From a virus, in the IMG/VR virus record IMGVR_UViG_3300045391_004489: a stretch of DNA of 56,618 nucleotides, one strand, 5' to 3'. A program made the position numbers and the translations under genes. Position 1 is the first letter of the stretch, and every line of letters begins with the position of its first letter. Shown here in pieces: positions 4,235-47,270 of this stretch. The notes under the pieces were generated by a model, which was not told the DNA's origin, searched no databases, and worked only from the letters and a program-made list of their open reading frames with translations.

Positions 4235-4503
4235 AGGATATTCCCATCGTTGGACTGGGTCATGGCGTCGCCGGCGAAGTGCTTCATCTGGTCGTAGAAC
4301 TTGACCGTCGGAAAGCCGTTGGCGGGGTCGTGAAGGGTGTGGAGGTTTCGCTCCTCCAACAGGTGGTACCGCTGCATCACACGAATCATGTCCTGTGCAG
4401 CGTCGAGATCGATCACCGCCTGGCCGGTCGTGATCGCCACGTAGGCGATCTCGATGAGCTTGGAGGTGGCCGCGAGCGCGGTCTCTCGGGTGGGGTGCGT
4501 CAT
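4231..4503 (-). CDS. Hypothetical protein (90 aa)
   Basis: ATG 4503 preceded by aggag; MTHPTRETALAATSKLIEIAYVA... Confidence 0.6.
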   Translation of the reverse strand: MTHPTRETALAATSKLIEIAYVAITTGQAVIDLDAAQDMIRVMQRYHLLEERNLHTLHDPANGFPTVKFYDQMKHFAGDAMTQSNDGNIL

Positions 4504-4513
4504 TGTGTTTCTC

Positions 4514-4597
4514 CTAGCAGCCGCAGTAGTAGGAGCCACCCTCACACCAGCAAGGCTCTTGCCGGACTTGGGGCGCGGGCGGCGTCGAGTACCTCAT
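4514..4597 (-). CDS. Possible 27-aa Cys-rich micro-ORF (below the ORF-track cutoff)
   Basis: ATGA overlap with the stop of 4594..4836; MRYSTPPAPQVRQEPCWCEGGSYYCGC; GC3-rich. Confidence 0.25.
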   Translation of the reverse strand: MRYSTPPAPQVRQEPCWCEGGSYYCGC

Positions 4598-4836
4598 TGT
4601 GCCCCCTTCCATCTGTTGGCCAGGCGCCAGCGGTCCTCGGCCTGTATGCGAGCGATGTAAGTTTGGATGAGCTCGAGCTCCCCCGGCTCGAACGCGGCTT
4701 CGGTGTCACCCGAGAACTTCGCCCAGATCAGGCGGGGGCTCGAGTACTTCGGGGTCGGTATCACTCTTCCCACACCGAGTAGAGCCGGTGACTGCTTTGT
4801 CACCACCTGCTCGCCTATCGCAAACTCACCTGCCAT
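4594..4836 (-). CDS. Hypothetical protein (80 aa), first gene of the leftward arm
   Basis: SD aagggagg; downstream of promoter 4864..4893. Confidence 0.65.
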   Translation of the reverse strand: MAGEFAIGEQVVTKQSPALLGVGRVIPTPKYSSPRLIWAKFSGDTEAAFEPGELELIQTYIARIQAEDRWRLANRWKGAQ

Positions 4837-4863
4837 GTCAGCCTCCCTTTTAGCGATGGCACT

Positions 4864-4893
4864 ACTATATCGCTACCCTGTGCTGTTAGTCAA
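4864..4893 (-). promoter_or_regulatory. Promoter, leftward (TTGACT-N18-TATAGT)
   Basis: Minus strand gtagTTGACTaacagcacagggtagcgaTATAGT; divergent from promoter 4923..4951. Confidence 0.65.
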
Positions 4894-4922
4894 CTACTCG
4901 GTCGCTCGAAGCTTCTCAGTGG

Positions 4923-4951
4923 TTGCTTTACTCTGATATTAGTTTTAGTAT
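4923..4951 (+). promoter_or_regulatory. Promoter, rightward (TTGCTT-N17-TAGTAT), leaderless
   Basis: TAGTAT is followed by 6 nt and then ATG 4958. Confidence 0.65.
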
Positions 4952-4957
4952 TTTCAC

Positions 4958-7036
4958 ATGACGACTATTAGCAAAGCCGACCAGATACTGCGCATCATAT
5001 CGCAGGCATGGGGGCCCGAGGACAATACGGGATACTGCTTTTTCCCCTGGGTGGAAGGGCCTGATAGGAAGTTCCGTAGTAAGTCGTTTCAGTGGCCGCA
5101 GCAGCGGGACGATATATTGCAGCACATGCTGGCGCACGAGGGTGACGACCTCTATTGGTGTCCGCTACTCTTCGCCCAGGACGCCCGCCAAGTGCAGTAC
5201 GCCACCGAGGAGTATGCGCTCTGGGCTGACCTCGACGAGGCAGATCCTCGAAAGATCGACCCGAAGTGGAAGCCCTCGATCGCCTGGGAGACTTCGCCGG
5301 GCAGGTACCAGGCTCTCTGGCTACTGAACGACCCCGATGAGGAGGATCTCTACGGGGCTTCTCAGAAGGGTGCGGACAACCAGCGTATGACGAGGCTGGT
5401 CGACGCCGACCCCAGTGGGTGGGACACCACGCAATTGCTGAGGCTGCCGGGCTGGACCAACCACAAATCTCAGTATGAAGATGAGAACGGGGAGTTTCCC
5501 CAGGGCAAGCTGCTGTGGTCCAAGGGGCCTCGATACAACGCGGAGCAGTTCAATGAATTGCCGGCGATCGATGACGAAGGGGAAGAGCTCCCCCTCGACG
5601 CAGAGCTCTTCGAGAAGATCGATGGAGTCGAGCCTGGTGAGGTGCTCGACCGAGTAAGACTCTTGCTCCCAAAGAGTGTCCCTGAGCGAATGGAGCGAGG
5701 GCCTCAGGAGGGCGAAGATCGCAGCAAGCCGATGTTCTACTTCATGCGTTGCCTGGCGGACGTTGGCTGCAGCATCCAGGAGATAGTGGCGGTCATACGC
5801 CCCACACCTTGGAATAAGTTCAGGGGTCGTAAGACTGAACTCGAAGACCTGGCGGAGCAGGCAAAGACTGCCTGGACTAAACGCAAGAAGCAGTTCAGCG
5901 AGACGGTCGACTACACTGGCTTGAATGTCAACGACTTCATAGCCGCGGCGAAGCCGCCCAAGTGGCTGGTGCGCAACATGATCGTCCGGGGCAATGTGGG
6001 ATTCATCGGGGGTGAACCCAAGGCCCGCAAGAGCTGGGTGGCACTTGACCTGGCGATGTCGGTCGCGGGATCTGCCAGCGCACACCACATGCACTTTCTC
6101 GATCAGTTCGCGGTTGAACAGTCCGGTCCAGTGTTGTACTTTGTGTTGGAGGACTCTCCACACCTGATGTCGGACCGCATCAAGAAGGTGTGGGAAGCCA
6201 AGACAAAGTACGACGGTACACAGCTCATTCTGCACGAAGGGGGGGTATACAGTGAACCTCGGGGCTCCCGTATCGAAGCGCCCTTAACTCTGGTACATGG
6301 CCACCAGGTCAATTTCTCTGACAAGGACTCAATGGCGAAGGTTCAACAGCGAATTCGACAGGGTTACACGATGGCAAACGGTAAGAAGTGGGCCTACGCC
6401 CTGGTCATCTTCGACACCTTCATGCGCAGCGTTGGTGGCTCAGACATCAACCACATGGGCGAGATGATGAACATAGTCCTAGACCCACTCACCCGAATGG
6501 CCAAGCGAGAGAACACGACAATACTGCTCGTGCACCACTTCAACAAGTCAAGAGTCGAGGGTGAGATACGCGGTGGCACCCGGCTGCTGGGCTCTCAGGC
6601 GCTGCACGCCTGGGCCGAGGACTCACTCTACCTCACCGCCCGCGAACACGGCTTCATCATGGAGCTAGAGTCTAAGGCCGCCCCCTCCGGGCGGTGGGAC
6701 TTTAAGACCGATCCCACACAGCGCACCTGGGCCCCAACGTACACCCTCGACGCAGGAGCTCAGGTACACGACATCGACTTCTCAACAGTGGAGCGGCCCA
6801 AGCCCCGCCGCGGGTCAAACACACCCAAGCTCAGCGGCAACTCAGCCAAAGTGTGGCGCGCCTGCCTCAGGCTACAGCCCGAAGGCCCCCAACGATGCTC
6901 AGACATCTCTCGCGCAGCGGGCCTCTCACCCGCAGCCACCTACAACTGTCTCAGAAAGCTCCAGGAGATCGGCCGCGCGGCCCAAACCCCCGACAAACTT
7001 TGGACAGTCCACGCGAAGCCTGACCCCGTCAACTGA
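4958..7036 (+). CDS. Primase-polymerase / RecA-like replicative helicase fusion with C-terminal wHTH
   Basis: N-terminal RepB/prim-pol-type motifs (ALWADLDEAD, SPGRYQALWLL, LRLPGWTNHK); AAA_25-like P-loop GGEPKARKSW and LVHHFNK; 692 aa. Confidence 0.9.
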   Translation: MTTISKADQILRIISQAWGPEDNTGYCFFPWVEGPDRKFRSKSFQWPQQRDDILQHMLAHEGDDLYWCPLLFAQDARQVQYATEEYALWADLDEADPRKIDPKWKPSIAWETSPGRYQALWLLNDPDEEDLYGASQKGADNQRMTRLVDADPSGWDTTQLLRLPGWTNHKSQYEDENGEFPQGKLLWSKGPRYNAEQFNELPAIDDEGEELPLDAELFEKIDGVEPGEVLDRVRLLLPKSVPERMERGPQEGEDRSKPMFYFMRCLADVGCSIQEIVAVIRPTPWNKFRGRKTELEDLAEQAKTAWTKRKKQFSETVDYTGLNVNDFIAAAKPPKWLVRNMIVRGNVGFIGGEPKARKSWVALDLAMSVAGSASAHHMHFLDQFAVEQSGPVLYFVLEDSPHLMSDRIKKVWEAKTKYDGTQLILHEGGVYSEPRGSRIEAPLTLVHGHQVNFSDKDSMAKVQQRIRQGYTMANGKKWAYALVIFDTFMRSVGGSDINHMGEMMNIVLDPLTRMAKRENTTILLVHHFNKSRVEGEIRGGTRLLGSQALHAWAEDSLYLTAREHGFIMELESKAAPSGRWDFKTDPTQRTWAPTYTLDAGAQVHDIDFSTVERPKPRRGSNTPKLSGNSAKVWRACLRLQPEGPQRCSDISRAAGLSPAATYNCLRKLQEIGRAAQTPDKLWTVHAKPDPVN

Positions 7037-8167: not shown

Positions 8168-8195
8168 TTGGCACTGGCGACGGGGATGATAGCAT
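8168..8195 (+). promoter_or_regulatory. Promoter (TTGGCA-N16-TAGCAT), near-leaderless
   Basis: The -10 is followed by 7 nt and then ATG 8203. Confidence 0.5.
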
Positions 8196-8202
8196 ATCGG
8201 TC

Positions 8203-9667: not shown

Positions 9668-10307
9668 GTCTGGTGCTGGTGCTGGGAACGAGCGGATGGT
9701 GCCCATGAGTATGGTGGACACCATGGTGAGGTCGAGGCTCGCGGAGATAGGGGCCGCCGCGGGAGTGAGCCACTCGAGGGTCGGTGTGGAGGTGTTGTTC
9801 AAGCTTCCGCCAGCCCTGCTGCTGGTGTACGAGCTGCTGTGGGATCTTAACATGTACGGTGAGAATAGCCCGGAGGTGGATGGTGGTAGGGACACTCGGG
9901 GGGCTGAAGCGGAGGTTGGAAAGGTGGGAGACCCTAAGAATCGGGGAGGTGGCGGTGGGGGGAGGACTCGAGACACTGACGCTTCTCGATCGCGGATGGC
10001 TGAAGTGGTGGTGCGCTCTGGCGGTAGCGCTCGGCGTGCTGCGCGTGGGGCATCACGGGGAAGCACTGCTCGAACTGCGGGAGTCGGAAACAGGGAGGCG
10101 GCAGAGATCAAGGCTCGTGCGGACAAGCGGCTTCGTGCTGTCGCTCGTGATGTGGCTGCTGAGTTGGCTGCTCTTGGTCTGGGGCTTGATCTTGCTACCG
10201 GGGAACTGATGGTTCAGGTGGGCGGAGTCGGGAATAAGGGGAATGGGGGGAATGAGGGTTTGGTCACCGGCGACGCGATGCGCGACGCAATCGATAAGCG
10301 CGATTAG
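9660..10307 (+). CDS. Hypothetical Gly/Arg/Ala-rich protein
   Basis: ORF track; codon usage (many NNT codons) differs from neighbouring genes. Confidence 0.45.
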   Translation: MARSGAGAGNERMVPMSMVDTMVRSRLAEIGAAAGVSHSRVGVEVLFKLPPALLLVYELLWDLNMYGENSPEVDGGRDTRGAEAEVGKVGDPKNRGGGGGGRTRDTDASRSRMAEVVVRSGGSARRAARGASRGSTARTAGVGNREAAEIKARADKRLRAVARDVAAELAALGLGLDLATGELMVQVGGVGNKGNGGNEGLVTGDAMRDAIDKRD

Positions 10308-10334
10308 GTGCCTCTCTAGGAGTGATGAGAGCTG

Positions 10335-10401
10335 TCTCTGCGCGATGGGTATATGCCGGGCCGATATATGAGTCGGTGAGGTGACGCTCATCGCGCAGAG
10401 A
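10335..10401. repeat. 13-bp perfect inverted repeat with 41-nt spacer
   Basis: tctctgcgcgatg (10335-10347) / catcgcgcagaga (10389-10401). Confidence 0.85.
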
Positions 10402-10647
10402 AGCGTTTAGGAGGGTCGGTGATCAGGGCTGGATCAGGGACGATCATACGTCATTCGTGGTTACACTATGATGGGTGAGGAAACTACGGGGTGCGAGAAG
10501 AGGTTGAGGGGGTGCCACAGTTGCTGGCGGTTCGTTCTCACTGAAATCTACGGGTCAAACTCCAGGCTGGGGTCCAGCTAACACTGTGGCTGGAGTTTAG
10601 TCAACACTCTACAGAGAGCTAGGAGGATTTACATAGCTATTCCCAGA

Positions 10648-10688
10648 GAAAATCCAAGCAAACATAAGGGAAAATCTGTCAAAAATCC
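10648..10688. other. Three phased A-tracts (GAAAATCY)
   Basis: gaaaatcc 10648, gaaaatct 10670, aaaaatcc 10681; spacings of 22 and 11 bp. Confidence 0.7.
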
Positions 10689-10941
10689 GCGAGGAGGTCG
10701 ACTAATCGTATTAGAACGTAGATACACTAAAAAACGCCTGACCTGCGGCGGGACATGACTCAACATCAGGAGTCGAATATCAACTACTAAAACATTTTGA
10801 GGGAGATTCCCAGATGTTTCTGGTGGTATCCCCGAGAAAAACCGGCCACGACACGGGTAAATCTGGGTTTAAACCGTCAGATATTCAGTGTTATGCTCGT
10901 CGGCCGAGGACGAAACGCTTCATAACAGAATCCGACGGCCC

Positions 10942-11015
10942 GCTCGCGGCGTGTGGAAAGTCATGACTGCTCGCGGTGTGGAGTGGACGTTTGTTTGATC
11001 GCGGCTCGCGGCGTT
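10942..11015. repeat. Iteron-like direct repeats GCTCGCGGYGT x3
   Basis: Copies start at 10942, 10969 and 11004, immediately upstream of the AT-rich tract. Confidence 0.7.
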
Positions 11016-11022
11016 CGCGAGG

Positions 11023-11054
11023 ATATATATGCATATTTATATAAGATTATTTTA
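11023..11054. other. AT-rich tract (possible DNA unwinding element)
   Basis: atatatatgcatatttatataagattatttta inside an otherwise GC-rich genome. Confidence 0.6.
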
Positions 11055-11202
11055 GGACTCTTGGGACTTTCCTGCCGGCCAGGAGCTCCGATCTCCGGAT
11101 TCTGCTGGAATCGCCACGGATCAGGATGTAGGGGTGGAAAACGGACATACTGGGACGTACCCGACGCGCGTTACGTGACCGTGAGAGGGCGTTTGGCGCC
11201 CC

Positions 11203-11240
11203 GTGATTGATATGATCCATACATGGATCATATCAATCAC
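11203..11240. repeat. Perfect palindrome, 18-bp arms with 2-nt centre
   Basis: gtgattgatatgatccat-ac-atggatcatatcaatcac. Confidence 0.95.
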
Positions 11241-11337
11241 GTAACGGGGGTCAAAGGCAGGAAAAGCTAAGCCACATATCGGGTGGATAACAAAGAATGG
11301 AATTCCTAGGAACTCCGTAGGGACATGATCGGACGAC

Positions 11338-11370
11338 GTGGTATGCTAGCATTCCGGCTCCGCTGATCTT
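11338..11370. repeat. Conserved intergenic element, copy 1 (contains ATGCTAGCAT palindrome)
   Basis: gtggtatgctagcattccggctccgctgatctt; 27 of 33 positions identical to 14823..14855. Confidence 0.8.
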
Positions 11371-11527
11371 GTCTCAGGGGGCTCGTGAGGGGGTGGCGAT
11401 TATATAACGCGCGCCCGCGCGTATACCACGGTACATGAGTGTTGTCAAGGACCGTGACCTAACTGAGGGTATGATCTTCGTTACCAAAAGATCTTGAAAA
11501 GTCGTCCGCTTTCGGGTGATTTGTCAC

Positions 11528-11556
11528 TTGACAGGGGGTCGGGGGAGTGAGATGAT
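11528..11556 (+). promoter_or_regulatory. Promoter (TTGACA-N17-GATGAT)
   Basis: cacTTGACAgggggtcgggggagtgaGATGAT; a 9-bp stem ggtcggggg/cccccgacc brackets the -10. Confidence 0.55.
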
Positions 11557-11594
11557 TTACCTATCGCCCCCCGACCGGGGGGCAAACCGAAGGG

Positions 11595-11996
11595 ATGATC
11601 AAGATGGCGAAGGTCGAGTACTCCACGAAGTCGCTCAGCGAGGAGATCGGCACCACCCCGAAGGAGCTGCGCAAGTTCCTGCGCAGCGACATGAGCGGCA
11701 TCGAGTCGGTGGGCAAGGGGGGCCGCTACACGATCGGCCTGACCGCCACCCAGCTCGGCAAGATGAAGAAGAGTTTCGCGAAGTGGGGCGAGGAGCTCGA
11801 GGCCAAGCGCGCCGCCAACGCCCAGCCGCTCACCGAGCAGACGGAGATCGACGCGCTCGCGATGATCGACGGGGAGAACGACGCGCCGATCGAGAACGAC
11901 GAGGAGATCGGCGACGACGCCGACGAACCCACCGACGCCGATCTGAACATGATCGACGAGGAGATCGAGCTCGACGAGGACGAGATCGAGGCCTGA
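11595..11996 (+). CDS. HTH-type DNA-binding protein with highly acidic C-terminal tail
   Basis: Paralogue of the 1504..2100 N-terminus; start may be ATG 11604; tail NDEEIGDDADEPTDADLNMIDEEIELDEDEIEA. Confidence 0.7.
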   Translation: MIKMAKVEYSTKSLSEEIGTTPKELRKFLRSDMSGIESVGKGGRYTIGLTATQLGKMKKSFAKWGEELEAKRAANAQPLTEQTEIDALAMIDGENDAPIENDEEIGDDADEPTDADLNMIDEEIELDEDEIEA

Positions 11997-12009
11997 TCTC
12001 AACGCCCTA

Positions 12010-12036
12010 CCACTCACCCCTTCGGGGGTGCAGTGG
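12010..12036 (+). terminator. Hairpin terminator
   Basis: ccact-cacccc-ttcg-ggggtg-c-agtgg. Confidence 0.6.
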
Positions 12037-12243
12037 TGTGTATGCCGACGCGGGTATCTCAAGGGGTTGGTGTGGAGCGTTGAGGATACTGCGTAGTATG
12101 TATGGGGGTGTATGTACACCGCGCGTACACGTCGGTATAAAGGGGTGTATCTGTCGTAGGGCGCCTCTGAGACAAGATCAAATAAGGTGGTATGCTGGCA
12201 TTGGGGACGACTTGATCTTGCGCCAGCGCGGCTAAATAGCTCC

Positions 12244-12272
12244 TTGACAACGTGGCGACTGGTGGATAGGAT
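12244..12272 (+). promoter_or_regulatory. Promoter (TTGACA-N17-TAGGAT)
   Basis: ccTTGACAacgtggcgactggtggaTAGGAT; leader hairpin ttgggg/ccccaa and SD aaagga. Confidence 0.6.
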
Positions 12273-12304
12273 TGGGGTATAACCCCAACCGAAAGGATCA
12301 TACG

Positions 12305-12526
12305 ATGAACGCTCGCGAGGCTCGCCGACGCAACCTCATCGCCTCCGGCGCCCCCCGACCGATCAATGTCGGATCGGTGATCACTCTGACTGAGCAGGTC
12401 GGTTCCCTGCCGGTCGACACCCGGGGTCTGGTCAAGGACTTCAACGACGATCGGTCCCACGCCTGGGTGACCCTGCTCGACGGTCGCGACAAGATCCTCC
12501 CGGTGAGCGCGATGCGCGCGGTCTGA
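12305..12526 (+). CDS. Hypothetical protein (73 aa)
   Basis: ATG 12305 after the SD; in frame with ORF 12272..12526. Confidence 0.6.
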   Translation: MNAREARRRNLIASGAPRPINVGSVITLTEQVGSLPVDTRGLVKDFNDDRSHAWVTLLDGRDKILPVSAMRAV

Positions 12527-12532
12527 CCCTCC

Positions 12533-12561
12533 TTGACACGACGCGGTTGCCGGGATATGAT
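12533..12561 (+). promoter_or_regulatory. Promoter (TTGACA-N17-TATGAT), leaderless
   Basis: The -10 is followed by exactly 6 nt and then ATG 12568. Confidence 0.75.
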
Positions 12562-12567
12562 CGAGGT

Positions 12568-12855
12568 ATGACCTCGACACCGCACACGAACTGCACCCAC
12601 CCCGCCACGAAGGCTGCGCGCGCCGCCTGCCGCCGGCAACGCGCCGCTGCCTCCACCGCCAACCGCGAGGCTCTCGCCGCGATCCTGACCTCCTTCTACG
12701 ACAACTCCGGCGACAGCGAGGAGATCGCCGCGAAGATCGACCTGCTCGCCGCACGCACCGGCGACGAGGCTCTCCGCACCGCCGCTCGCGGCTACTACGA
12801 CGGGTCGCTGACCATCGAGGAGATGATCTACACCGCTGCGCAGTCGAATCTCTGA
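12568..12855 (+). CDS. Hypothetical protein with N-terminal HTxCTHPATKAARAxCR module
   Basis: MTSTPHTNCTHPATKAARAACRRQRA...; paralogous N-terminus in 12997..13380. Confidence 0.65.
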   Translation: MTSTPHTNCTHPATKAARAACRRQRAAASTANREALAAILTSFYDNSGDSEEIAAKIDLLAARTGDEALRTAARGYYDGSLTIEEMIYTAAQSNL

Positions 12856-12866
12856 CATCCCCCGCT

Positions 12867-12886
12867 GAGGCGCCCACAGGGCGCTC
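12867..12886 (+). terminator. Hairpin terminator
   Basis: gaggcgccc-aca-gggcgctc. Confidence 0.5.
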
Positions 12887-12962
12887 TCGCGCTGTGTGGG
12901 GCAGTTGTATATGCCAGCATACCTGACACCTCATGACCGCCTCAAACAGCCCGATCTCGGCC

Positions 12963-12990
12963 TTGACATGGTTCCATGGGGTGGTATGAT
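12963..12990 (+). promoter_or_regulatory. Promoter (TTGACA-N16-TATGAT), leaderless
   Basis: The -10 is followed by 6 nt and then ATG 12997. Confidence 0.75.
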
Positions 12991-12996
12991 TTACCT

Positions 12997-13380
12997 ATGA
13001 CTCCGACCTCTCACACCGAATGCACGCACCCCGCGACCAAGGCGGCTCGCGCCAGGTGCCGTGCGCGTCGGGCTCAGTACATCAAGGATCACACCTTCGA
13101 GATCGAGTATAACCGCCTTGACGCTCTCACACAGGAGCGACACGCAGGTCGCAACGGTCTGATGACGACCGCCATGCACGCTCTCTGTGCAGGTGCCGAG
13201 AACGCCGACGCCACCGAAGGATACGAACCGGGCACTGAGGCCTGGTACTCACTCGCGATCTCGGGGTTCTGGTCGCTCATGAACGACACCGCCGGCGGTG
13301 ACCTGCGGTGGATGTACAACATCGAAGACTGCACCCGTGAAGAGCTCGAGGATCCGCCCTACAACTGGCTCGACGATTGA
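12997..13380 (+). CDS. Hypothetical protein with N-terminal HTxCTHPATKAARAxCR module
   Basis: MTPTSHTECTHPATKAARARCRARRA... Confidence 0.65.
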   Translation: MTPTSHTECTHPATKAARARCRARRAQYIKDHTFEIEYNRLDALTQERHAGRNGLMTTAMHALCAGAENADATEGYEPGTEAWYSLAISGFWSLMNDTAGGDLRWMYNIEDCTREELEDPPYNWLDD

Positions 13381-13395
13381 GATTAGGGGATTGAT

Positions 13396-13593
13396 ATGAC
13401 CAAGATCACCGAGATCGCGCTCGAGGTCGACAAGGTCGCCCAGGAGGCTGGCGAGGACCCTTACGAGATCTTCGTGAACGCGAGGAAGGGCGAGAACCTC
13501 GACTCGCCGCCTGTCGCTTACATCGCCCACATGATCGACAAGTGCTCGCAGTTCGACATCGCGCAGATCGACCGATTGGTCTTCGGGGAGTGA
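13396..13593 (+). CDS. Hypothetical protein (65 aa)
   Basis: SD agggga; second gene of a two-gene unit. Confidence 0.6.
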   Translation: MTKITEIALEVDKVAQEAGEDPYEIFVNARKGENLDSPPVAYIAHMIDKCSQFDIAQIDRLVFGE

Positions 13594-13606
13594 CATGGTT
13601 GCCGCC

Positions 13607-13635
13607 TTGACATTCGAGGTGGTAGGCGCTAGTAT
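13607..13635 (+). promoter_or_regulatory. Promoter (TTGACA-N17-TAGTAT), leaderless
   Basis: The -10 is followed by 6 nt and then ATG 13642. Confidence 0.75.
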
Positions 13636-13641
13636 CTAGGT

Positions 13642-13833
13642 ATGACGCTGAACACCGAACTCGCGATACTGCTCACCCAACGCTCCGATCTCATCCAGGT
13701 ACGCAAGGGCAAGACCCTGGAGCAGATGATCAAGTTCCTGATTGACGACTCAGGGTTCGACGACATCCACCCGGAAGATCGGTTCGAACTCGAACTCGCT
13801 CTCTCGGAGGAGCTCATGGAGATATTCTGCTGA
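13642..13833 (+). CDS. Hypothetical acidic protein (63 aa)
   Basis: ORF track; leaderless start. Confidence 0.65.
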   Translation: MTLNTELAILLTQRSDLIQVRKGKTLEQMIKFLIDDSGFDDIHPEDRFELELALSEELMEIFC

Positions 13834-13843
13834 AGAGCTCTGC

Positions 13844-13861
13844 GCGCCCCTCTGGGGGCGC
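13844..13861 (+). terminator. Hairpin terminator
   Basis: gcgcccc-tctg-ggggcgc. Confidence 0.55.
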
Positions 13862-13960
13862 CAGTAGCGTGTATGAGGTCATGCCTCATGCCAGCAATCC
13901 CTTCGATCCTGAGGCGCTCACAGAGCTTCCTACGGCGCTTAAAATCGCTCGCTGGCCGCC

Positions 13961-13989
13961 TTGACTGCCGGCGCAGGAGGGGGTAGTAT
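13961..13989 (+). promoter_or_regulatory. Promoter (TTGACT-N17-TAGTAT), leaderless
   Basis: The -10 is followed by 6 nt and then ATG 13996. Confidence 0.75.
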
Positions 13990-13995
13990 ATAGGC

Positions 13996-14286
13996 ATGAC
14001 GACATACAACATCACCACCGCCCGCCGCACCCCCAACCGCCGGGTGACGAAGTTCACGAAGATCATCGTCTCGCTGATCTTGGCGCCCTTCTTGATCGCT
14101 GCCTTCGTCGGAACGGGCATCGGAATCGCCGACGCGATCCACCACCCCGCTGCCGCCACCGTCACGAAGAGTGACAACACCGTCACGAACTACAACGACG
14201 GTTGGATCGACGCCAAGCGCGACGACTGCGAGCAGGGGGTCAAGATCGCCTGCCAGTGGCTTGATCAGCAACACATCTCCCACTAA
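13996..14286 (+). CDS. Membrane-anchored small protein (96 aa)
   Basis: TM segment IIVSLILAPFLIAAFVGTGIGIA after a basic N-terminus. Confidence 0.65.
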   Translation: MTTYNITTARRTPNRRVTKFTKIIVSLILAPFLIAAFVGTGIGIADAIHHPAAATVTKSDNTVTNYNDGWIDAKRDDCEQGVKIACQWLDQQHISH

Positions 14287-14294
14287 ACATCTCG

Positions 14295-14324
14295 CCCTGC
14301 CCCCTTGACACCGAGGGGGCAGGG
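14295..14324 (+). terminator. 10-bp perfect hairpin whose loop contains the next -35 hexamer
   Basis: ccctgccccc / gggggcaggg; loop ttgacaccga. Confidence 0.6.
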
Positions 14325-14333
14325 TGGTATTAT
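14305..14333 (+). promoter_or_regulatory. Promoter (TTGACA-N17-TATTAT), leaderless
   Basis: The -10 is followed by 6 nt and then ATG 14340. Confidence 0.7.
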
Positions 14334-14339
14334 CTAGGC

Positions 14340-14576
14340 ATGAACAAAAACGAACTCGACGCCCTCGCTATCTCGCTCCTCGCCACCGACAACATCGCCG
14401 ACATCATCGCCGACGGGCACGACCAGGCGACTGACGACGAAAACGGCTTCGCCATCGCCGCCGGCAGCTTGATCGAAGACTACCGCGAACTGAACGACAT
14501 CTCCGACGAAGACGCTTTCGATCTTGAAGAGATCATCTGCGAGATGATGATCAACGGCGAATCCGCCAACGACTGA
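14340..14576 (+). CDS. Very acidic small protein (78 aa)
   Basis: By my count 22 Asp/Glu versus 2 Lys/Arg; leaderless start. Confidence 0.65.
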   Translation: MNKNELDALAISLLATDNIADIIADGHDQATDDENGFAIAAGSLIEDYRELNDISDEDAFDLEEIICEMMINGESAND

Positions 14577-14578
14577 CC

Positions 14579-14608
14579 TTGACACAACGAGGCAACACGA
14601 GGTATGAT
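14579..14608 (+). promoter_or_regulatory. Promoter (TTGACA-N18-TATGAT), leaderless
   Basis: The -10 is followed by 6 nt and then ATG 14615. Confidence 0.7.
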
Positions 14609-14614
14609 ATTCCT

Positions 14615-14773
14615 ATGATGATGACGATGATCGATCGAATCCCGACCCGCTTCTTCGAAACCCGCGCTGCGCTGATCGCCTACCGCGTCGCCCGACTCTT
14701 CGATCGCCACGAATCGGGGATCGCCGCCGAAATCCGCGACGCGATCCGCGACAACTCCGATCTCCTCGACTGA
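14615..14773 (+). CDS. Hypothetical protein (52 aa)
   Basis: In-frame ATG of ORF 14579..14773 at the leaderless position. Confidence 0.5.
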   Translation: MMMTMIDRIPTRFFETRAALIAYRVARLFDRHESGIAAEIRDAIRDNSDLLD

Positions 14774-14782
14774 TCTCCTGCC

Positions 14783-14802
14783 AGGGGCGCTCACGCGCCC
14801 CT
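14783..14802 (+). terminator. Hairpin terminator
   Basis: aggggcg-ctcacg-cgcccct. Confidence 0.55.
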
Positions 14803-14822
14803 CTCAGGGCGTATCGCGCCGT

Positions 14823-14855
14823 GTGGAATGCCAGCTATCCGGCTCCACTGATCAT
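14823..14855. repeat. Conserved intergenic element, copy 2
   Basis: gtggaatgccagctatccggctccactgatcat; see 11338..11370. Confidence 0.8.
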
Positions 14856-14899
14856 GCCTCAACGAGCTTTGTATGACGTGGCAAGTTGATGCCATCGAC

Positions 14900-14929
14900 T
14901 TGACAACGCAGCATGACGGGGGATATATT
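14900..14929 (+). promoter_or_regulatory. Promoter (TTGACA-N18-TATATT)
   Basis: acTTGACAacgcagcatgacgggggaTATATT; leader with SD gaaggga. Confidence 0.6.
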
Positions 14930-14962
14930 AGGGGTATCAACAAAACAACGAAGGGAAATCTG

Positions 14963-15208
14963 ATGAAGATCGAACTGACTGATGCGAAGTATCTGATCAT
15001 CCAGCTGAACAAGATCGAGAACGGCGAACCGATCATCCGCCGGCAGGGGGAAGATTATGCGGAAATGCAGAATCTCCCCCTCAATTACTGCACGGAATGC
15101 GATTCCCAGATTGATGATATCTGGAATGACGGGCATATCATGATTGGGGATTGGAAGAATCCCATCATTGCGATTTGCTGCGAGGGATATCACCCCCTTG
15201 AGAAATAG
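14963..15208 (+). CDS. Small Cys-rich protein (81 aa), AT-rich codon usage
   Basis: ATG 14963 after the SD; CTECDSQ...CCEGYH; noticeably lower GC than neighbours. Confidence 0.55.
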   Translation: MKIELTDAKYLIIQLNKIENGEPIIRRQGEDYAEMQNLPLNYCTECDSQIDDIWNDGHIMIGDWKNPIIAICCEGYHPLEK

Positions 15209-15230
15209 ATTAATCTGAGATAATCTGAAT

Positions 15231-15266
15231 GCATATATATCCCTTTGATAAAGGGGGTATATATGC
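15231..15266 (+). terminator. Near-perfect AT/GC hairpin
   Basis: gcatatatatcccttt-gat-aaagggggtatatatgc. Confidence 0.55.
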
Positions 15267-15307
15267 GTGTATATGGGGGAGTAATGAAGGATTAAAATAG
15301 TCTATCC

Positions 15308-15366
15308 ATGTATATCTATGTATATCTCAGAATGAACTGATTGATCCGATCATCTATGTATATCTC
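15308..15366. repeat. Direct repeats ATGTATATCT x3 (15-mer atctatgtatatctc x2)
   Basis: Copies at 15308, 15318 (tandem) and 15356. Confidence 0.9.
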
Positions 15367-15526
15367 GTTGTGTCTGGATGTGTCCGATTTGAACCCCCCC
15401 GGGTGGAATCTCCGGATCTTCGTGATTGTCCATCTTACAGACGGTGGTGAGCGGGGGCTGAGGATCTCCCCCGAAACTTTTAACACCGTTACCTCCTCCC
15501 ACCTTCTCGTGTCCACCACACAAGAA

Positions 15527-15556
15527 TTGACAGCACCCTTCCCCAGGTCATAAACT
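15527..15556 (+). promoter_or_regulatory. Promoter (TTGACA-N18-TAAACT)
   Basis: aaTTGACAgcacccttccccaggtcaTAAACT; ACTGTCAT is repeated twice downstream. Confidence 0.55.
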
Positions 15557-15603
15557 GTCATCGACGGACATCACTGTCATATCTCGCGTGAGGGGGTCCT
15601 ACC

Positions 15604-16971
15604 ATGGCTGGCGAAAACTCCCACCTGAGGTTCCCCAAGCGGTCGGGATACCTCTCCTCGGGTCACCCCAAGCCGGGCGACCCAGGCATCCGCAGCGAAC
15701 GAGGCGAGCGCAACGCCCGACGCCGTGAGGCGGGTCTCCGCATCGTAGCGACCGAGATGGAGAACTCCCCGATCGCCCAGGAGGAGCGGTCTCGACCCCG
15801 CGTAGGCCGTAAGTCCAACCGCACCTTCGACAACCGCGGCGGTCTCGCCCCCCTCTCCACACAGATCGACCCTGTGGGCCGCCAACTCCTCGACGAACTC
15901 GACCCCGAGGATCCTGCTTACCGCAGCAAGTATCGGGGCATCATCGCCGAACACACCCGGGTGTGGGAGGAGCTGGGCGCCACGCCGCTGATCATAGACT
16001 TCTCCAACGTGCAGGAGCCGATCGCCCCGCAGCGACTTCACCCCTCCCACAAGCTCAGCCAGCACCCCGAGCGGCCGCTTTACGTGTGGGCCTTCAAGAA
16101 CGCCCACGCTGCGTATCCGCAGAAGAGTGACGAGGGTCGACGACACCGAGAGGAGTGGTACTGGGAGCAGATGGACAAGGGCATGCTGCCGCCCACGTTC
16201 AATCCCTACGCCCCTGGATCGCCCAAACACCACGCCTTCGAGAACCGCCACGTGCTGGTGGACGACAGACCGACGTCCAAGACCTTCTCCGCGGTCACTC
16301 GTCGCGACACCGGCGAGCCCCAGGAGGTGCTCGACACTCCCCGGCAGCTCCGAGCCCGAGCTCGTCGCAAGCTGCAGGCCGGTGGCAAGCTCTCGGAGGA
16401 GGAGTTCGTCGCTCTGTGTGGAAAACCCATCGAAGAGTGGGACCTTGAGGAGCTCGCCAAGGGTCGTACCAAGGACATCAACGGCGAGTTCAAGGGTCGC
16501 GCTCCCTCCGCCTACATGGCCCGGGAGACCCAGGAGCGCATCGAGACGCTGTTCAAGCAGCGGGTGCGTGGTTCGATGAACGAGACGACGGTCAACGCTT
16601 TGTCGACGCTGTCCCAGGTGCTTGACAACGATGACGTGGACATGCGGGGCAAGCCGGTCGTGGCCGCCTCCACGAAGGTGGACGTGGCGAAATTCTTGGT
16701 CGAACACCTGCTGGGCAAGCCCAAGCAGACCGTGGAGAGTGATATCTCCGTCAAGCTGCAGGGTGTTCTTGCCTCCGTGATGGTGGCGCCGGAGCACGCC
16801 ATGCCGCCGGCGGGCTCCACGGACCCGGTCTCGCCCACGGGCCGTATGTTCGCCGGTCAGCGGGGCTACCGCCAGGACTACGAGGACAGCGAGCTGAAGG
16901 CTCTTGAGCGCGCCGGCATCATCGACGCGGTCGTGGTGGACGATGACGACCTAGAGGAGGGTGGAGAGTGA
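15604..16971 (+). CDS. Hypothetical protein (455 aa), basic N-terminus and acidic C-terminus
   Basis: ORF track; SD gaggggg; no motif recognised, and a small-terminase-like DNA-binding role is only a guess. Confidence 0.7.
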   Translation: MAGENSHLRFPKRSGYLSSGHPKPGDPGIRSERGERNARRREAGLRIVATEMENSPIAQEERSRPRVGRKSNRTFDNRGGLAPLSTQIDPVGRQLLDELDPEDPAYRSKYRGIIAEHTRVWEELGATPLIIDFSNVQEPIAPQRLHPSHKLSQHPERPLYVWAFKNAHAAYPQKSDEGRRHREEWYWEQMDKGMLPPTFNPYAPGSPKHHAFENRHVLVDDRPTSKTFSAVTRRDTGEPQEVLDTPRQLRARARRKLQAGGKLSEEEFVALCGKPIEEWDLEELAKGRTKDINGEFKGRAPSAYMARETQERIETLFKQRVRGSMNETTVNALSTLSQVLDNDDVDMRGKPVVAASTKVDVAKFLVEHLLGKPKQTVESDISVKLQGVLASVMVAPEHAMPPAGSTDPVSPTGRMFAGQRGYRQDYEDSELKALERAGIIDAVVVDDDDLEEGGE

Positions 16972-17222
16972 ATCTTCAGCAGTGGGTGTCCGCGGCCAGC
17001 GGCACCAAGATGGTGAATCTGTCCCAGGTCGAGGCCGTCGTGGTGACCGGCTCGGCCAACCCGTTCACGGTGTCCGCGGTGAGCGGGTCGAACACGTACG
17101 CCATCGACGGTCTGTCCTTCACGACCTCAGCGCTGGCCTTCGCCGCCATACAGAAGCTGCTGGGTCAGAGCAACTCGGCGACCGATCCGACCGTGACGAC
17201 CGGCAACACGCACGATGTCTGA
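16968..17222 (+). CDS. Hypothetical protein
   Basis: ORF track; GTGA coupling. Confidence 0.55.
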   Translation: MNLQQWVSAASGTKMVNLSQVEAVVVTGSANPFTVSAVSGSNTYAIDGLSFTTSALAFAAIQKLLGQSNSATDPTVTTGNTHDV

Positions 17223-17499
17223 CGCGTGGAGTAAGGCCAAGACGCCTGATGATGAGTGCGCCTTCTGTGGAACGCCGTACGTCAGTCACAAGGCGCAGGA
17301 GGCCTCTGGCGACATGTTCCACCAGTGGACTAACTCCTCGGGCGAGCTCCATGAGGTCCGTAAAACTCCTGCGCAGCCCTCCACACCGTCGCCGGCGGTC
17401 GTCATCGCGCCTGCGCCGGACATCGTGCTGCGAAAACTGCTGCGTGAGCTCGGTGTGATCACGCCTGAGCAGTATAAGGGCCTGTTTCAGGGTGACTAG
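17215..17499 (+). CDS. Hypothetical protein
   Basis: ORF track; coupled. Confidence 0.55.
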   Translation: MSDAWSKAKTPDDECAFCGTPYVSHKAQEASGDMFHQWTNSSGELHEVRKTPAQPSTPSPAVVIAPAPDIVLRKLLRELGVITPEQYKGLFQGD

Positions 17500-17896
17500 G
17501 CAGCTTCGCTGGCTGGAGTCGGCCAATCTCCCTCGCGCGGTGCTCGATGATATCGCCCGGCATATCGCCGGGGCGCTGCCTAGGGAGGCCGTGGGGCTTC
17601 TCTGGGAGGCCCCGGCACAGCCTGCTGGGTGGGTGCCGCTGCGAAACACTTCGTTCGAACCTGAGAGCTCCTACGCCGTGAATGTCGGCGAGCTGATGGA
17701 CGAATTCCAGCTAGCCACTGGTCGTGATATCATCAGCTCTATGAACGACGAGGGCTTCATGCTGACGCTGTGGCACAGTCATCCCAGCGGTCAGGTGGGT
17801 CCGAGTCGAGGCGACCTGAGGGAGAAGCACGACGGGCTGACGTACATGGTCATCGCTGTGGATGAGGACGGCGGTCTTCGGGCGACTCTCTTCTGA
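17492..17896 (+). CDS. JAB/MPN (JAMM) metallopeptidase-domain protein
   Basis: PREAVGLLW (Glu) plus WHSHPSGQVGPSRGD gives an intact E...HxH-x7-S-x2-D motif. Confidence 0.8.
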   Translation: MTRQLRWLESANLPRAVLDDIARHIAGALPREAVGLLWEAPAQPAGWVPLRNTSFEPESSYAVNVGELMDEFQLATGRDIISSMNDEGFMLTLWHSHPSGQVGPSRGDLREKHDGLTYMVIAVDEDGGLRATLF

Positions 17897-17915
17897 GGAG
17901 ACAGGATGAAGACAC

Positions 17916-18746
17916 GTGACAACCGAATCCCTCGATGTCCCCGATGCGGCGAGCTCGGAGGTCCTGAACGTTCCGATGCCGCCGCCCGAGCCGTCGAAGA
18001 CTTTCATCGTTCAACCGGACACTAGGTTCGTCTTGCCGCCGCTGGTGCTTGACAGCACCATGCACGTGGACCTCGTGCAGGCCCAGGGCGACGACACGGG
18101 CATAGCCAACGCGGCCCGAGTCTCGACGACGGGCAGCATGGGACCGCGGGAGACGTCCGACGAGGACATCGCCGGCCTGATAGACTACCTGATGAAGCAT
18201 CGGCACGGCTCTCCGTTCGAGCACAACACCTTCACGTTCTTCGTCGAGGCGCCGATCTTCGTCTTCCGTGAGTTCCATCGCCACCGTGTGGGGTGGAGCT
18301 ACAACGAGCAGAGCGGACGATACCGTGAGCTTCAGCCGCACTTCTGGATTCCGCCGATCAACAGGCGGATCAAGCAGACCGGCAAGGCCGCCCACTATCG
18401 TCTGGTTCCCGGCAGCGTCCGTCAGATCGAGGTCGCGACGGAGGCGATGGTCTACGGCTACAAGCACGCCTGGGAGGCGTACCAGGCGATGCTCCGTGAG
18501 GGGGTCGCTCGAGAGGTGGCTCGTTCGGTGCTGCCGGTGGGTATCTATAGTTCGATGTACGCCACCTGTAACGCGCGGTCGCTGATGCACTTCTTGAGTC
18601 TGCGGACCGACGACAACCGGGCGATCAACGCCAGCAAGCCCATGGCCGAGATCGAGCAGGTCGCTCGTGAGATAGAGCGACTGTTCCAGGGTCGAATGCC
18701 CCTGACCCACGCTGCGTTCAACAAGTGGGGGCGGGTAGCCCCCTAA
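17916..18746 (+). CDS. thyX: Flavin-dependent thymidylate synthase ThyX
   Basis: ThyX signature FHRHRVGWSYNEQSGRYRE (RHR...S..S.RY). Confidence 0.9.
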   Translation: MTTESLDVPDAASSEVLNVPMPPPEPSKTFIVQPDTRFVLPPLVLDSTMHVDLVQAQGDDTGIANAARVSTTGSMGPRETSDEDIAGLIDYLMKHRHGSPFEHNTFTFFVEAPIFVFREFHRHRVGWSYNEQSGRYRELQPHFWIPPINRRIKQTGKAAHYRLVPGSVRQIEVATEAMVYGYKHAWEAYQAMLREGVAREVARSVLPVGIYSSMYATCNARSLMHFLSLRTDDNRAINASKPMAEIEQVAREIERLFQGRMPLTHAAFNKWGRVAP

Positions 18747-47068: not shown

Positions 47069-47270
47069 TCGTCCGAAGTACATCTTCACCGTTATCGCCA
47101 ACGCCGCCGGGGGTTACGACGTCACCCGTCGAACCGCTGGTTCGGCACAGTCCTGGGTCATGGTATCGTATGACGACCGACAGGACGCCGACAACCTCAA
47201 GCAGCAGCTCGACATGCTGGAGCTCAGGGTGTGGGCTCGACGCGTACGACAGGCCAGGAAGAAGGGCTGA
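47046..47270 (+). CDS. Hypothetical protein (74 aa)
   Basis: In-frame ATG of ORF 47031..47270. Confidence 0.5.
   Translation: MTNAKKTDRPKYIFTVIANAAGGYDVTRRTAGSAQSWVMVSYDDRQDADNLKQQLDMLELRVWARRVRQARKKG

Follow-up and report, generated by a model that had tools for sequence, protein, structure and literature searches.

An array of small genes with repeated hairpin-palindrome-promoter modules and predicted leaderless starts in an uncultured actinophage genome

How are nine very small genes, packed into 3 kb of a phage genome and mostly starting at a fixed, very short distance from a promoter, expressed, and what kind of region do they form? The question is raised by positions 12244-15270 of the IMG/VR virus record IMGVR_UViG_3300045391_004489, a DNA of 56,618 nucleotides that was analysed at its full length and is called the window here. 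An earlier reading of the letters alone (the sequence-only reading) had described the locus as an array of rightward mini-genes, designated m1 to m9 in this work, with eight near-consensus promoters, six of which are followed by exactly 6 nt and an ATG. It had proposed that these are independently fired early cistrons with leaderless mRNAs, of the host take-over or anti-defence type, in an exchangeable accessory region. The explanation that we consider probable is that the array consists of accessory cassettes of a lytic phage resembling Curtobacterium phage Shrew, which are transcribed from promoters for the primary sigma factor of the host, give rise to leaderless mRNAs and are reshuffled at repeated composite modules.

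All eight promoters and all six starts were found where they had been placed (Table 1); the formula TA(T/G)nAT given for the -10 hexamer describes seven of the sites and fails for the one at 14900, which reads TATATT. Scanned with the pattern TTGAC(A/T)-N16-18-TAnnnT, the eight sites match 9-11 of the 12 positions of the sigma-70/sigma-A consensus hexamers (16-18 bp apart), and the DNA upstream of the -35 hexamer is GC-rich, with CC before TTGACA in seven of the eight units. The same geometry was confirmed at 4958 (TTGCTT-17-TAGTAT-N6-ATG) and 42579 (TTGACA-17-TACCAT-N6-ATG) and, with a gap of 7 instead of 6 nt, at 8203 and 1351(-). Two more N6-ATG sites, running from 48596 to 48632 and from 11254(-) to 11220(-), were found in addition; the latter falls within a perfect inverted repeat of 19 bp and is therefore a doubtful promoter. 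The frequency of such sites was compared with that in 100 dinucleotide shuffles, with at least five of six matches demanded in the -35 hexamer. The window contains 28 promoter-like sites against 6.25 expected, and nine of the 28 have ATG 6 nt past the -10 hexamer against 0.06 expected (largest value in any shuffle, 2). In the region 10000-18000 alone there are 15 promoter-like sites against 3.0 expected, and the stricter string TTGACA-N17-TAnnAT-N6-ATG occurs four times in the window (expected, 0.00).

Comparison with other genomes was needed to see how far this arrangement extends. The first and the last 70 nt of the window are identical (1-70 = 56549-56618), which indicates a circularly assembled, complete genome, with 60% G+C and 0 tRNA genes. 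Tailed-phage proteins (large terminase, portal, scaffold and major capsid) are all encoded within 22.0-27.7 kb, and further products comprise a RepB-type primase with an AAA ATPase domain, an SNF2 helicase, ThyX and a DNA polymerase I fused to a UDG-like domain. The best matches of the polymerase come from actinophages, with Curtobacterium phage Shrew (50%) followed by Streptomyces, Microbacterium and Gordonia phages, and tblastn revealed whole-genome synteny with Shrew, a lytic phage. Judged by its proteins, the window is the genome of an uncultured actinophage, a siphovirus similar to Shrew and Triscuit, of which the latter is likewise lytic, with a ~3.8-kb direct terminal repeat (DTR) at its ends (PMC7302621). 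The hosts of the closest phages and the 60% G+C point to an actinobacterial host. Pfam detected no sigma factor and no RNA polymerase among ~50 open reading frames (ORFs) of the window, and neither an integrase nor a recognisable repressor was present among the ORFs scanned. The capsid gene has no prophage relative in 185,579 species genomes (GTDB), and for this reason no host could be assigned via prophages.

Megablast of the array against GenBank phages gave no match, the whole window being without a near DNA match there, and blastn gave only matches of ~65-135 nt with 73-83% identity, e.g. over the m2 motif. With the m2 family and a 455-aa protein encoded next to the array (15604-16971) as anchors, the metagenomic relatives L002, L003, L032, L033 and L034 were retrieved, together with more distant ones. 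L032 is the closest relative that includes the array, its flanking proteins showing 56-69% amino-acid identity. The array itself is 99.9% identical in two short JGI contigs (samples 3300060805 and 3300060918), and two more contigs are 99-99.9% identical. IMG/VR searches with m3, an m2/m3 profile and the helix-turn-helix (HTH) protein encoded left of the array gave no further closer relatives, and a metagenome scan with the 455-aa protein returned mostly contigs already retrieved.

In all these genomes the promoters show the same build. Among promoter-like sites, N6-ATG was found in 5/6 in L033, 4/6 in L003, 3/6 in L002 and 3/9 in L034 (~0.01-0.03 expected each), and in 6/22 in Shrew against 0.12 expected. 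Annotated starts have this geometry in Shrew genes 3, 15 and 28 and in Triscuit genes 9 and 14, and Shrew gene 33 has it with a 7-nt gap. Transcripts predicted to begin at such an ATG start at Shrew 1685, 6665 and 10423 and at Triscuit 3912 and 5848. The 6 intervening nt vary while the distance is fixed across six phages, which argues for selection on the distance and not only for common descent. The 6-nt geometry is thus real, as the sequence-only reading had it, but not special to the array: it is also found at operon heads elsewhere in the genome and throughout the lineage, and it appears to be a conserved, selected build for promoter-proximal genes in general. One such site was noticed in Shrew gene 11 (4538-4981), in which TTGACA-17-TATGAT-N6-ATG predicts that the gene begins, in frame and without a leader, at 4652, immediately to the right of the DTR edge; the annotation, which begins at 4538, may be placed too far upstream.

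With the -10 hexamer ending 6 nt before the ATG, the first nucleotide to be transcribed should be the A of this ATG. In transcription-start maps of Mycobacterium and Corynebacterium the TAnnnT motif lies 6-7 nt upstream of +1, and a quarter to a third of the genes in these genera are leaderless. The six array units all use ATG, the 6 nt upstream lie within the promoter, and no usable Shine-Dalgarno (SD) site is present. Two classes of promoter module can be distinguished. The L class has the -10 hexamer, 6 nt and ATGA; the S class has the -10 hexamer, GGGGT, ATC(A/G)A and a conserved leader of ~30 nt that ends in a GAAGGG SD site, and is represented in the window by m1, m9 and the HTH gene. 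Among the six phages, 16/16 L-class units carry ATG exactly 6 nt past the -10 hexamer, reading (G)G-Y-ATGA, and 10/13 leadered units keep A-T at the same distance. The presence of G-G-Y-A-T at equal distance in both classes supports the assignment of this A as +1. Part of the geometry therefore belongs to the promoter module itself, since leadered units keep GGY-AT(C/G) where the leaderless ones have their start codon.

The proposed starts are backed by the coding sequences. All nine ORFs, of 52-127 aa, were confirmed. Seven of them (m1, m2 and m4-m8) have a third-codon-position G+C of 0.78-0.91 at the proposed starts, in a genome of 0.60 G+C, and are accordingly taken as real genes; the values for m3 (0.73) and m9 (0.64) were obtained on longer ORFs from upstream start codons. 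JGI gene calls on independent contigs chose the leaderless starts for m6, m7 and m8, and an upstream start for m3. Among 37 aligned m2 homologues, taken from independent metagenomes, M1 is almost invariant and a single sequence is extended N-terminally. The leaderless ATG is also where the m2/m3 homologues of L003, L032 and L033 begin, and the P2-to-ATG geometry is identical in L032 at 7966. The gene m4, which has an SD site, is predicted to be co-transcribed with m3.

The claim that the region is modular and exchangeable was supported by the comparison of synteny and gene turnover that the sequence-only reading had itself proposed. The order of units is HTH / m1 m2 / m3 m4 m5 / m6 m7 m8 / m9 in the window and HTH / X1 m4' / m6' / m2' m1' / X2 / m9' in L032, so that the same gene families occur in permuted order, with each gene behind its own promoter. 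Genes have been gained and lost: m3, m5, m7 and m8 are missing from L032, X1 and X2 from the window. Similarity between the m2 units of the two phages begins ~12 nt upstream of the -35 hexamer, and upstream of this boundary lies the 3' end of m1 in the window and a copy of the module in L032. In L003 and L033 an m3-type paralogue precedes the m2-type gene, the reverse of the window, and in L034 and L032 m6 precedes m2. The mode of initiation also changes within one family, m6 being leaderless in the window and having an S-class leader with SD site in L032, L034, L003 and L033; its N-terminus MTTY is kept in L032 despite the leader.

The sequence-only reading had pictured independent promoter-gene-terminator units, and this did not hold throughout. 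At the junctions m1-m2, m4-m5 and m7-m8 there is no hairpin, the next promoter following 2-14 nt past the stop codon, and m4 is without a promoter. The array consists instead of four blocks, m1-m2, m3-m4-m5, m6-m7-m8 and m9, each bounded by a repeated composite module. The GC hairpins reported at the ends of several units were confirmed by folding, but none has a U-tract, each being followed by GUGU(A/G). A consensus scan for intrinsic terminators picked up only one of the array hairpins, that at 14292-14327, with a weak T-run, among a total of 5 sites (4.5 by chance). Hairpins that lack a U-tract have been reported to terminate transcription in Actinobacteria, and a terminator function of those described here is possible. 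The hairpin after m6 (14292-14327) encloses the -35 hexamer of P7, which lies partly in its stem and partly in its loop.

One copy of the composite module precedes each of the four blocks and the HTH gene. The five copies are homologous, 110-130 nt long, and have the order GC hairpin, CTCT..GTGT(A/G), palindrome core ATGCYRGCAT, variable spacer and CC-TTGACA; an nhmmer profile found exactly five copies genome-wide, all within 11.3-14.9 kb. In 22 copies from six phages only the columns A-T-G-C-n-n-G-C are invariant or nearly so. The core is often embedded in GG(T/A)ATGCYRGCAT(A/T)CC, one copy in L003 being a perfect 16-mer, and both ATGCCAGCAT and its reverse complement ATGCTGGCAT occur, as a symmetric site would give. 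RNAalifold found no conserved pair in the 22 copies and Rfam no match in the 10-16 kb region, which makes a DNA site for a dimeric protein the better reading of the palindrome. Its centre lies at -82.5, -81.5, -103.5 and -103.5 from the predicted +1 in the window, and in the relatives the distances cluster at ~-83 and ~-104.5, two helical turns apart, a spacing that is only suggestive since the copies are related by descent. The modules are among the best-conserved DNA of these phages (79-92% over segments of 36-49 nt), and most cassette genes are undetectable at the DNA level between phages. A reading of ATGCTAGCAT as a bidirectional extended -10 promoter (TGnTAGCAT) was rejected, most copies having G/C at the essential A of the -10 hexamer. 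A further palindrome-like sequence, GGGATGATAGCATATC at 8183-8198, differs from the 16-bp consensus at 3 positions and overlaps the -10 hexamer that serves the start at 8203.

In all relatives the HTH protein is kept as the neighbour on the left of the array, with homologues in L032 (69%), L003, L033 and L034 and in Shrew, whose gene 2 lies in the terminal repeat. Its gene has the most symmetric copy of the module upstream of its own promoter, and promoter and leader are the same in L003, L032 and Shrew. We put the protein forward, as a hypothesis suggested by this arrangement, as candidate regulator of the palindromes; the form taken as the putative target of the 133-aa HTH protein and a paralogue is GGTATGCTAGCATTCC. 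The paralogue is a second HTH protein of 198 aa, encoded at 1504-2100(-), whose N-terminal domain is 43% identical to that of the array HTH protein. In its promoter, TTGACA-18-TAGCAT at 2165(-), the -10 hexamer lies inside a perfect ATGCTAGCAT palindrome (2136-2145), the core of the array module; the overlap may reflect autoregulation or coincidence, and in Shrew no palindrome-on-promoter site of this type was found outside its DTR. The leader of the array HTH gene (11563-11594; 1055-1110 in L003 and 1112-1171 in Shrew) contains in all relatives a conserved G-run/C-run hairpin before the GAAGGG SD site, which may control translation or stability. A 99% identical JGI contig, L030, differs by one 21-nt in-frame deletion and encodes an HTH product of 126 instead of 133 aa. 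The deletion thus lies in the HTH gene, possibly in its repetitive acidic tail, as a strain-level variation in length.

The position of the array was compared with the genome ends of the cultured phages. Shrew has a perfect DTR of 4,512 bp that contains the HTH homologue (gene 2), small genes 3-10 and AT-rich repeats of the GGGGGTATAT type, with TTGAACCCCCCCG 39 bp before the repeat edge; in Triscuit GAACCCCCC is found at 3745, 14-50 bp from the edge of the repeat. In Shrew and Triscuit together the TTGAACCCCCCC motif is separated from the DTR edge by 14-51 bp; it occurs directly past the array in the window, L032, L003, L034 and L002. The window has the order 1.3-kb non-coding stretch, HTH gene, array, AT-rich repeats and TTGAACCCCCCCGGG, and so have L032, L003 and L034. 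From the position of TTGAACCCCCCCGGG the right DTR edge is predicted at ~15.41-15.45 kb, and we infer from the synteny that the array is the counterpart of the gene set borne by the Shrew DTR; a DTR that collapses gives a circular assembly with one copy of it, as seen here.

Some further elements flank the array on both sides. AT-rich short repeats of the GGGGGTATAT / GTATATCT type fill 15209-15403, a zone that ends in TTGAACCCCCCCGGG, and also occur at 12090-12140. AT-rich repeats and the C-run motif precede the right DTR edge of Shrew (4020-4473), the C-run motif alone is present in Triscuit, and a similar zone is found in L003, L032, L034 and L002; it may act as a packaging or terminus signal. 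On the left, the 1.3 kb between 10310 and 11595 hold no convincing gene, and a 39-nt island in it (10589-10627) shares 92% identity with L032 5277-5315; the synteny with Shrew would place the left DTR edge, i.e. the genome end, within these 1.3 kb. At 11202-11241, left of the HTH gene, lies a perfect inverted repeat with 19-bp arms, CGTGATTGATATGATCCAT / ATGGATCATATCAATCACG, which contains the promoter-like site at 11254(-), is kept almost base for base in L032 (~5900-5950) and might serve as an operator, an origin or a site related to packaging.

The course of events that we propose is the following. The array would most likely be carried in, or at the inner end of, a DTR of several kb, and its eight promoters would be read by host RNA polymerase with the primary sigma factor (sigma-A or HrdB type). 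Six units would yield mRNAs with neither 5' leader nor SD site, bound directly by 70S ribosomes, and m1, m9 and the HTH gene would use the same GGY-A(+1)T start region followed by the ~30-nt leader with the GAAGGG SD site. Leaderless mRNAs are bound by 70S ribosomes and are common in Actinobacteria. The GC hairpins without U-tract would attenuate read-through and so split the array into the four blocks. The composite modules would be the regulatory unit, their palindrome probably binding a dimeric phage regulator for which the HTH protein is the candidate, and they probably also serve as homology patches for duplicating, swapping and reordering promoter-gene cassettes between phages. Early expression is plausible in view of the near-consensus primary-sigma promoters, the failure to find a phage sigma factor or RNA polymerase gene and the synteny with the Shrew DTR, and the products may be directed at the host. 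A bolder version, possible but rather doubtful, holds that the array is a DTR-borne system similar to the PeSLs of T4-type phages, in which the module fires leaderless or short-leader mRNAs at DNA entry, is switched by the HTH protein and doubles as a portable recombination site. The HTH protein would then bind the GGTATGCYRGCATACC-type palindrome on one helical face at ~-82 or ~-104, and the cassettes would move, duplicate, reorder and flip between the leaderless and the leadered state.

Several observations weigh against the explanation by reshuffled leaderless cassettes. In four of the six leaderless starts AGG is found 1-3 nt before the ATG, too close for a normal SD site but not negligible. 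In relatives an ATG at +1 sometimes precedes a leader and a downstream start (L002 363; L033 8034), so the geometry alone does not prove a leaderless gene. The hairpins differ from classical intrinsic terminators, in which a GC hairpin is followed by a U-tract, and the lack of any hairpin at three junctions means that some of the predicted leaderless genes would also be read inside longer RNAs. The relatives are distant, at ~35-69% amino-acid identity, so that some of what looks like gene turnover may be mere divergence. No pair of near-identical genomes showed a recombination junction, the contigs of 99-99.9% identity being without cassette difference, and recombination at the modules is thus an indirect deduction; the descent of the modules from one another also limits what their palindrome spacing can say. 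Only synteny and the shared motif speak for DTR membership, the left DTR edge was not located, and comparison with the termini of Shrew and Triscuit gave only chance-level 9-mers.

Some of these observations are also expected if the 6-nt rule is mainly the trace of a duplicated promoter module, whose conserved initial sequence AT(G/C)A was spread by duplication or gene conversion, leaderless translation being incidental and the proteins made mostly from longer read-through transcripts or from other starts. This would account for the GGY-AT(C/G)A that leadered units keep at an equal distance from the -10 hexamer, for the ATG at +1 before a leader and downstream start at L002 363 (where it opens a 10-aa ORF) and L033 8034, for the detectable homology of the promoter units (repeats D4, D7 and D8) and for the three junctions without terminator. 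We nevertheless regard this as unlikely, since all six ATGs open ORFs of 52-127 aa with coding-type third-position G+C, their homologues have exactly the same N-terminus, and in six phages the 6-nt sequence varies while the distance is kept. Moreover, the in-frame upstream starts that could replace them (TTG 12547, ATG 12976 and TTG 14579) are located within the promoter spacer or the -35 hexamer and lack an SD site. The intergenic module might, on the other hand, work not as the DNA site of a protein but as a structured RNA (small RNA, processing site or antitermination signal). Being located just downstream of hairpins it would form part of read-through transcripts, the folds of three complete intergenic regions surpass those of shuffles (z -1.9 to -2.9), and some of the copies form long palindromes with imperfections. 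A strong extended dyad is limited to three copies, however, and neither RNAalifold nor Rfam gave any sign of such an RNA; the invariant part is a palindrome of 8-10 bp with asymmetric variants in both orientations (ATGCCAGCAT, ATGCTGGCAT), which fits a dimeric DNA-binding protein. We therefore hold the RNA alternative to be quite improbable.

The least probable of the alternatives considered is that the array contains morons or immunity-type genes, expressed constitutively or from a prophage, with the neighbouring HTH protein as their repressor, and not early or take-over genes. The definition of a moron, an own promoter and hairpin per gene or block, would apply here, an HTH gene with an upstream palindrome adjoins the array, and m6 encodes a small membrane protein, as many superinfection-exclusion proteins are. 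Against this stand the absence of an integrase or recognisable repressor among the ORFs scanned, the lytic nature of the cultured relative Triscuit (PMC7302621), the lack of a prophage relative of the capsid gene in the species genomes searched, and a genome layout that matches lytic DTR phages.

Cassettes set off by promoter and hairpin have a precedent in the PeSLs (promoter-early stem-loops) in hyperplastic regions of T4-type phages, repeated motifs of ~100 bp that combine a strong host sigma-70-type promoter with a GC-rich stem-loop upstream of small orphan genes, and whose flanked genes are gained, lost and reordered from one related phage to another (Arbiol et al. 2010, PMC2839356; Comeau et al. 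2014, PMC4122927). The array resembles them in its repeated composite of hairpin and promoter and in the clustering of small orphan genes, apparently in a variable region and with a reordering of genes; the PeSL stem-loop may overlap the promoter, as the m6 hairpin does with the -35 hexamer of P7. It differs in belonging to an actinobacterial siphovirus-like phage and not to a T4-type myovirus. The PeSL motif ends in an SD site and a start codon, whereas six units here have neither SD site nor leader, and its upstream region is AT-rich, in contrast to the GC-rich one of the array with a conserved palindrome 80-105 bp upstream of +1. There is also no close genome pair or mini-circle as evidence of recombination at the motif. 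The array is thus an analogue of the PeSL system and not a member of it.

The pre-early region of T5 is a comparable early module in a terminal repeat. That of SPO1, a module for host takeover that lies within the terminal redundancy, has been described as made up of small genes in short operons with strong host-sigma promoters (PMC6873191, citing Stewart et al. 1998). The array shares with both the many small genes without assigned function and the several short operons with their own strong promoters for the host primary sigma factor. The location in a long DTR is established for SPO1 and T5, whereas here it is deduced from synteny with Shrew and Triscuit; in the SPO1 module, as far as that account goes, the genes have strong ribosome-binding sites rather than leaderless mRNAs, and there is no sequence homology to the array. 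In Cluster O mycobacteriophages predicted SigA promoters have a +1 that coincides with the first nucleotide of the start codon (Cresawn et al. 2015, PMC4351075), and these genomes also carry a repeated palindrome of unknown role (PMC4351075). Only three such promoters have been described there, however, at operon heads and not in a dense array, and the palindrome has another sequence and is scattered genome-wide, with no composite module or cassette shuffling described. The SAS/ESAS elements of Cluster K mycobacteriophages and Cluster EF Microbacterium phages (PMC3203893; PMC7302621) are likewise conserved repeated motifs, presumed regulatory, at the starts of some small non-structural actinophage genes, but SAS occupies the ribosome-binding-site position on leadered mRNAs, whereas the motif described here is a promoter and most of its genes have no ribosome-binding site. 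Leaderless SigA-type actinophage promoters, promoter-terminator cassettes and early modules in terminal repeats are each already known; what is new is their combination, a hairpin-palindrome-promoter module across a lineage of DTR actinophages, with L- and S-class alternatives within one gene family.

The sequence rule (-35/-10, 6 nt, ATGA, or the variant with GGGGT-ATC and leader) appears to mark promoter-proximal genes across this actinophage lineage and would correct start calls such as that of JGI for m3 or that of Shrew gene 11 (4652 rather than 4538). The array offers a compact candidate set of early genes for take-over and anti-defence screening, and if the more doubtful PeSL-like version were true, it would be a predictable address of such genes in actinophages. 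The role of regulatory cassettes as shuffling points would be extended from T4-type coliphages to phages of high-G+C Gram-positive bacteria, with leaderless initiation as a variation, and the existence of m6 in a leaderless and a leadered version amounts to a natural experiment on what leaderless translation costs and what it gains. As Shrew and Triscuit are cultured, these readings can be tested there.

Table 1. Features of the array and of its surroundings in the window (hexamers with spacer length; the 6 nt before the start codon in lower case)
Feature	Position	Strand	Remarks
HTH gene promoter	11528..11556	+	TTGACA-17-GATGAT; ~32-nt leader, GC hairpin, GAAGGG SD
HTH protein gene	11595..11996	+	133 aa, acidic tail; phrog_15118, E 5.5e-7
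Hairpin after HTH gene	12002..12041	+	Fold -28.8 kcal/mol, z -3.2; terminator-like
P1	12244..12272	+	TTGACA-17-TAGGAT; leadered; predicted +1 12279 in GGGGT-ATA; SD GAAAGGA
m1	12305..12526	+	73 aa, basic, pI 10.6; homologue L032 at 8368
P2	12533..12561	+	TTGACA-17-TATGAT, cgaggt, ATG 12568; 7 nt past m1 stop
m2	12568..12855	+	95 aa, predicted leaderless; N-terminal H-x2-C-x-H-x9-C, then four helices
GC hairpin after m2	12870..12884	+	Folding
P3	12963..12990	+	TTGACA-16-TATGAT, ttacct, ATG 12997
m3	12997..13380	+	127 aa, predicted leaderless; m2 paralogue
m4	13396..13593	+	65 aa, acidic; SD site, without own promoter; homologue L032 at 7196
P5	13607..13635	+	TTGACA-17-TAGTAT, ctaggt, ATG 13642
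m5	13642..13833	+	63 aa, acidic, predicted leaderless
GC hairpin after m5	13837..13868	+	Folding
P6	13961..13989	+	TTGACT-17-TAGTAT, ataggc, ATG 13996
m6	13996..14286	+	96 aa, one predicted transmembrane helix, predicted leaderless; phrog_31224
Hairpin after m6, 16-bp stem	14292..14327	+	Fold -33.8 kcal/mol, z -6.7
P7	14305..14333	+	TTGACA-17-TATTAT, ctaggc, ATG 14340
m7	14340..14576	+	78 aa, pI 4.05, 22 Asp+Glu vs 2 Lys+Arg, predicted leaderless
P8	14579..14608	+	TTGACA-18-TATGAT, attcct, ATG 14615; 2 nt past m7 stop
m8	14615..14773	+	52 aa, predicted leaderless
GC hairpin after m8	14778..14807	+	Folding
P9	14900..14929	+	TTGACA-18-TATATT; leadered: aggggt-ATCAACAAAACAACGAAGGG...ATG; same leader in L032 at 9130
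m9	14963..15208	+	81 aa, acidic, four Cys; homologue L032 at 9191
Hairpin after m9, 18-bp stem	15229..15268	+	Fold -28.5 kcal/mol, z -5.8; AT-rich zone begins
TTGAACCCCCCCGGG motif	15388..15403	+	DTR-edge motif by comparison with Shrew and Triscuit
Module copy 1	11316..11383	+	nhmmer E 7e-12; core ATGCTAGCAT 11343-11352, long dyad arms; repeat families D5, I2
Module copy 2	12164..12232	+	nhmmer E 1.4e-10; core ATGCTGGCAT 12192-12201; matches own reverse complement too
Module copy 3	12884..12951	+	nhmmer E 2.9e-10; core ATGCCAGCAT 12911-12920
Module copy 4	13862..13928	+	nhmmer E 3.8e-9; core ATGCCAGCAA 13888-13897
Module copy 5	14801..14869	+	nhmmer E 7e-13; core ATGCCAGCTA 14828-14837

None of the products m1-m9 has a functional match in Pfam, PHROGs or NCBIfam, nor in PDB or BFVD, in agreement with the earlier statement that they have no recognisable function. 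The best defined among them are m2 and m3, members of a widespread family in which His6, Cys9, His11 and Cys21 are invariant, a motif that looks like a zinc knuckle; the m2 family is kept in all five metagenomic relatives. The two genes are related at the DNA level by repeat D7 (12556-12632 vs 12985-13061, 74% over 77 nt), which extends from the -10 hexamer through the first ~22 codons. The idea that m3 is a chimera of the m2 N-terminus and a body like that of X1 in L032 was rejected, as BLASTP showed no similarity; m3-type paralogues exist in L003 and L033. An AlphaFold model of m2 (pLDDT 92.9, four helices) has no neighbour in PDB and matches only uncharacterised proteins of Streptomyces phages Zuko and KimJongPhill, and m2 found no match among GenBank phages by tblastn. 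Although Zuko encodes structural homologues of m2, its genome is laid out differently, which made it of no use for synteny.

Two observations concern the rest of the genome. The 455-aa protein used as anchor has no Pfam or PHROG match and is kept in all relatives with 32-62% identity; its gene, preceded by its own conserved promoter TTGACA-18-TAAACT at 15527, is the first one right of the predicted DTR edge, here and in L032. The window also encodes an unusual set of nucleotide-metabolism proteins, shared with Shrew, which consists of a stand-alone UDG-superfamily protein, a dUTPase_2-like protein, a weak thymidylate-synthase-like protein, ThyX and the DNA polymerase I with N-terminal UDG-like domain (41240-41794(-), 45251-45892, 47231-48145, 17916-18746 and 49023-51545). 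The thymidylate-synthase-like protein is possibly a pyrimidine hydroxymethylase, and the set as a whole hints at a modified or uracil-related DNA chemistry.

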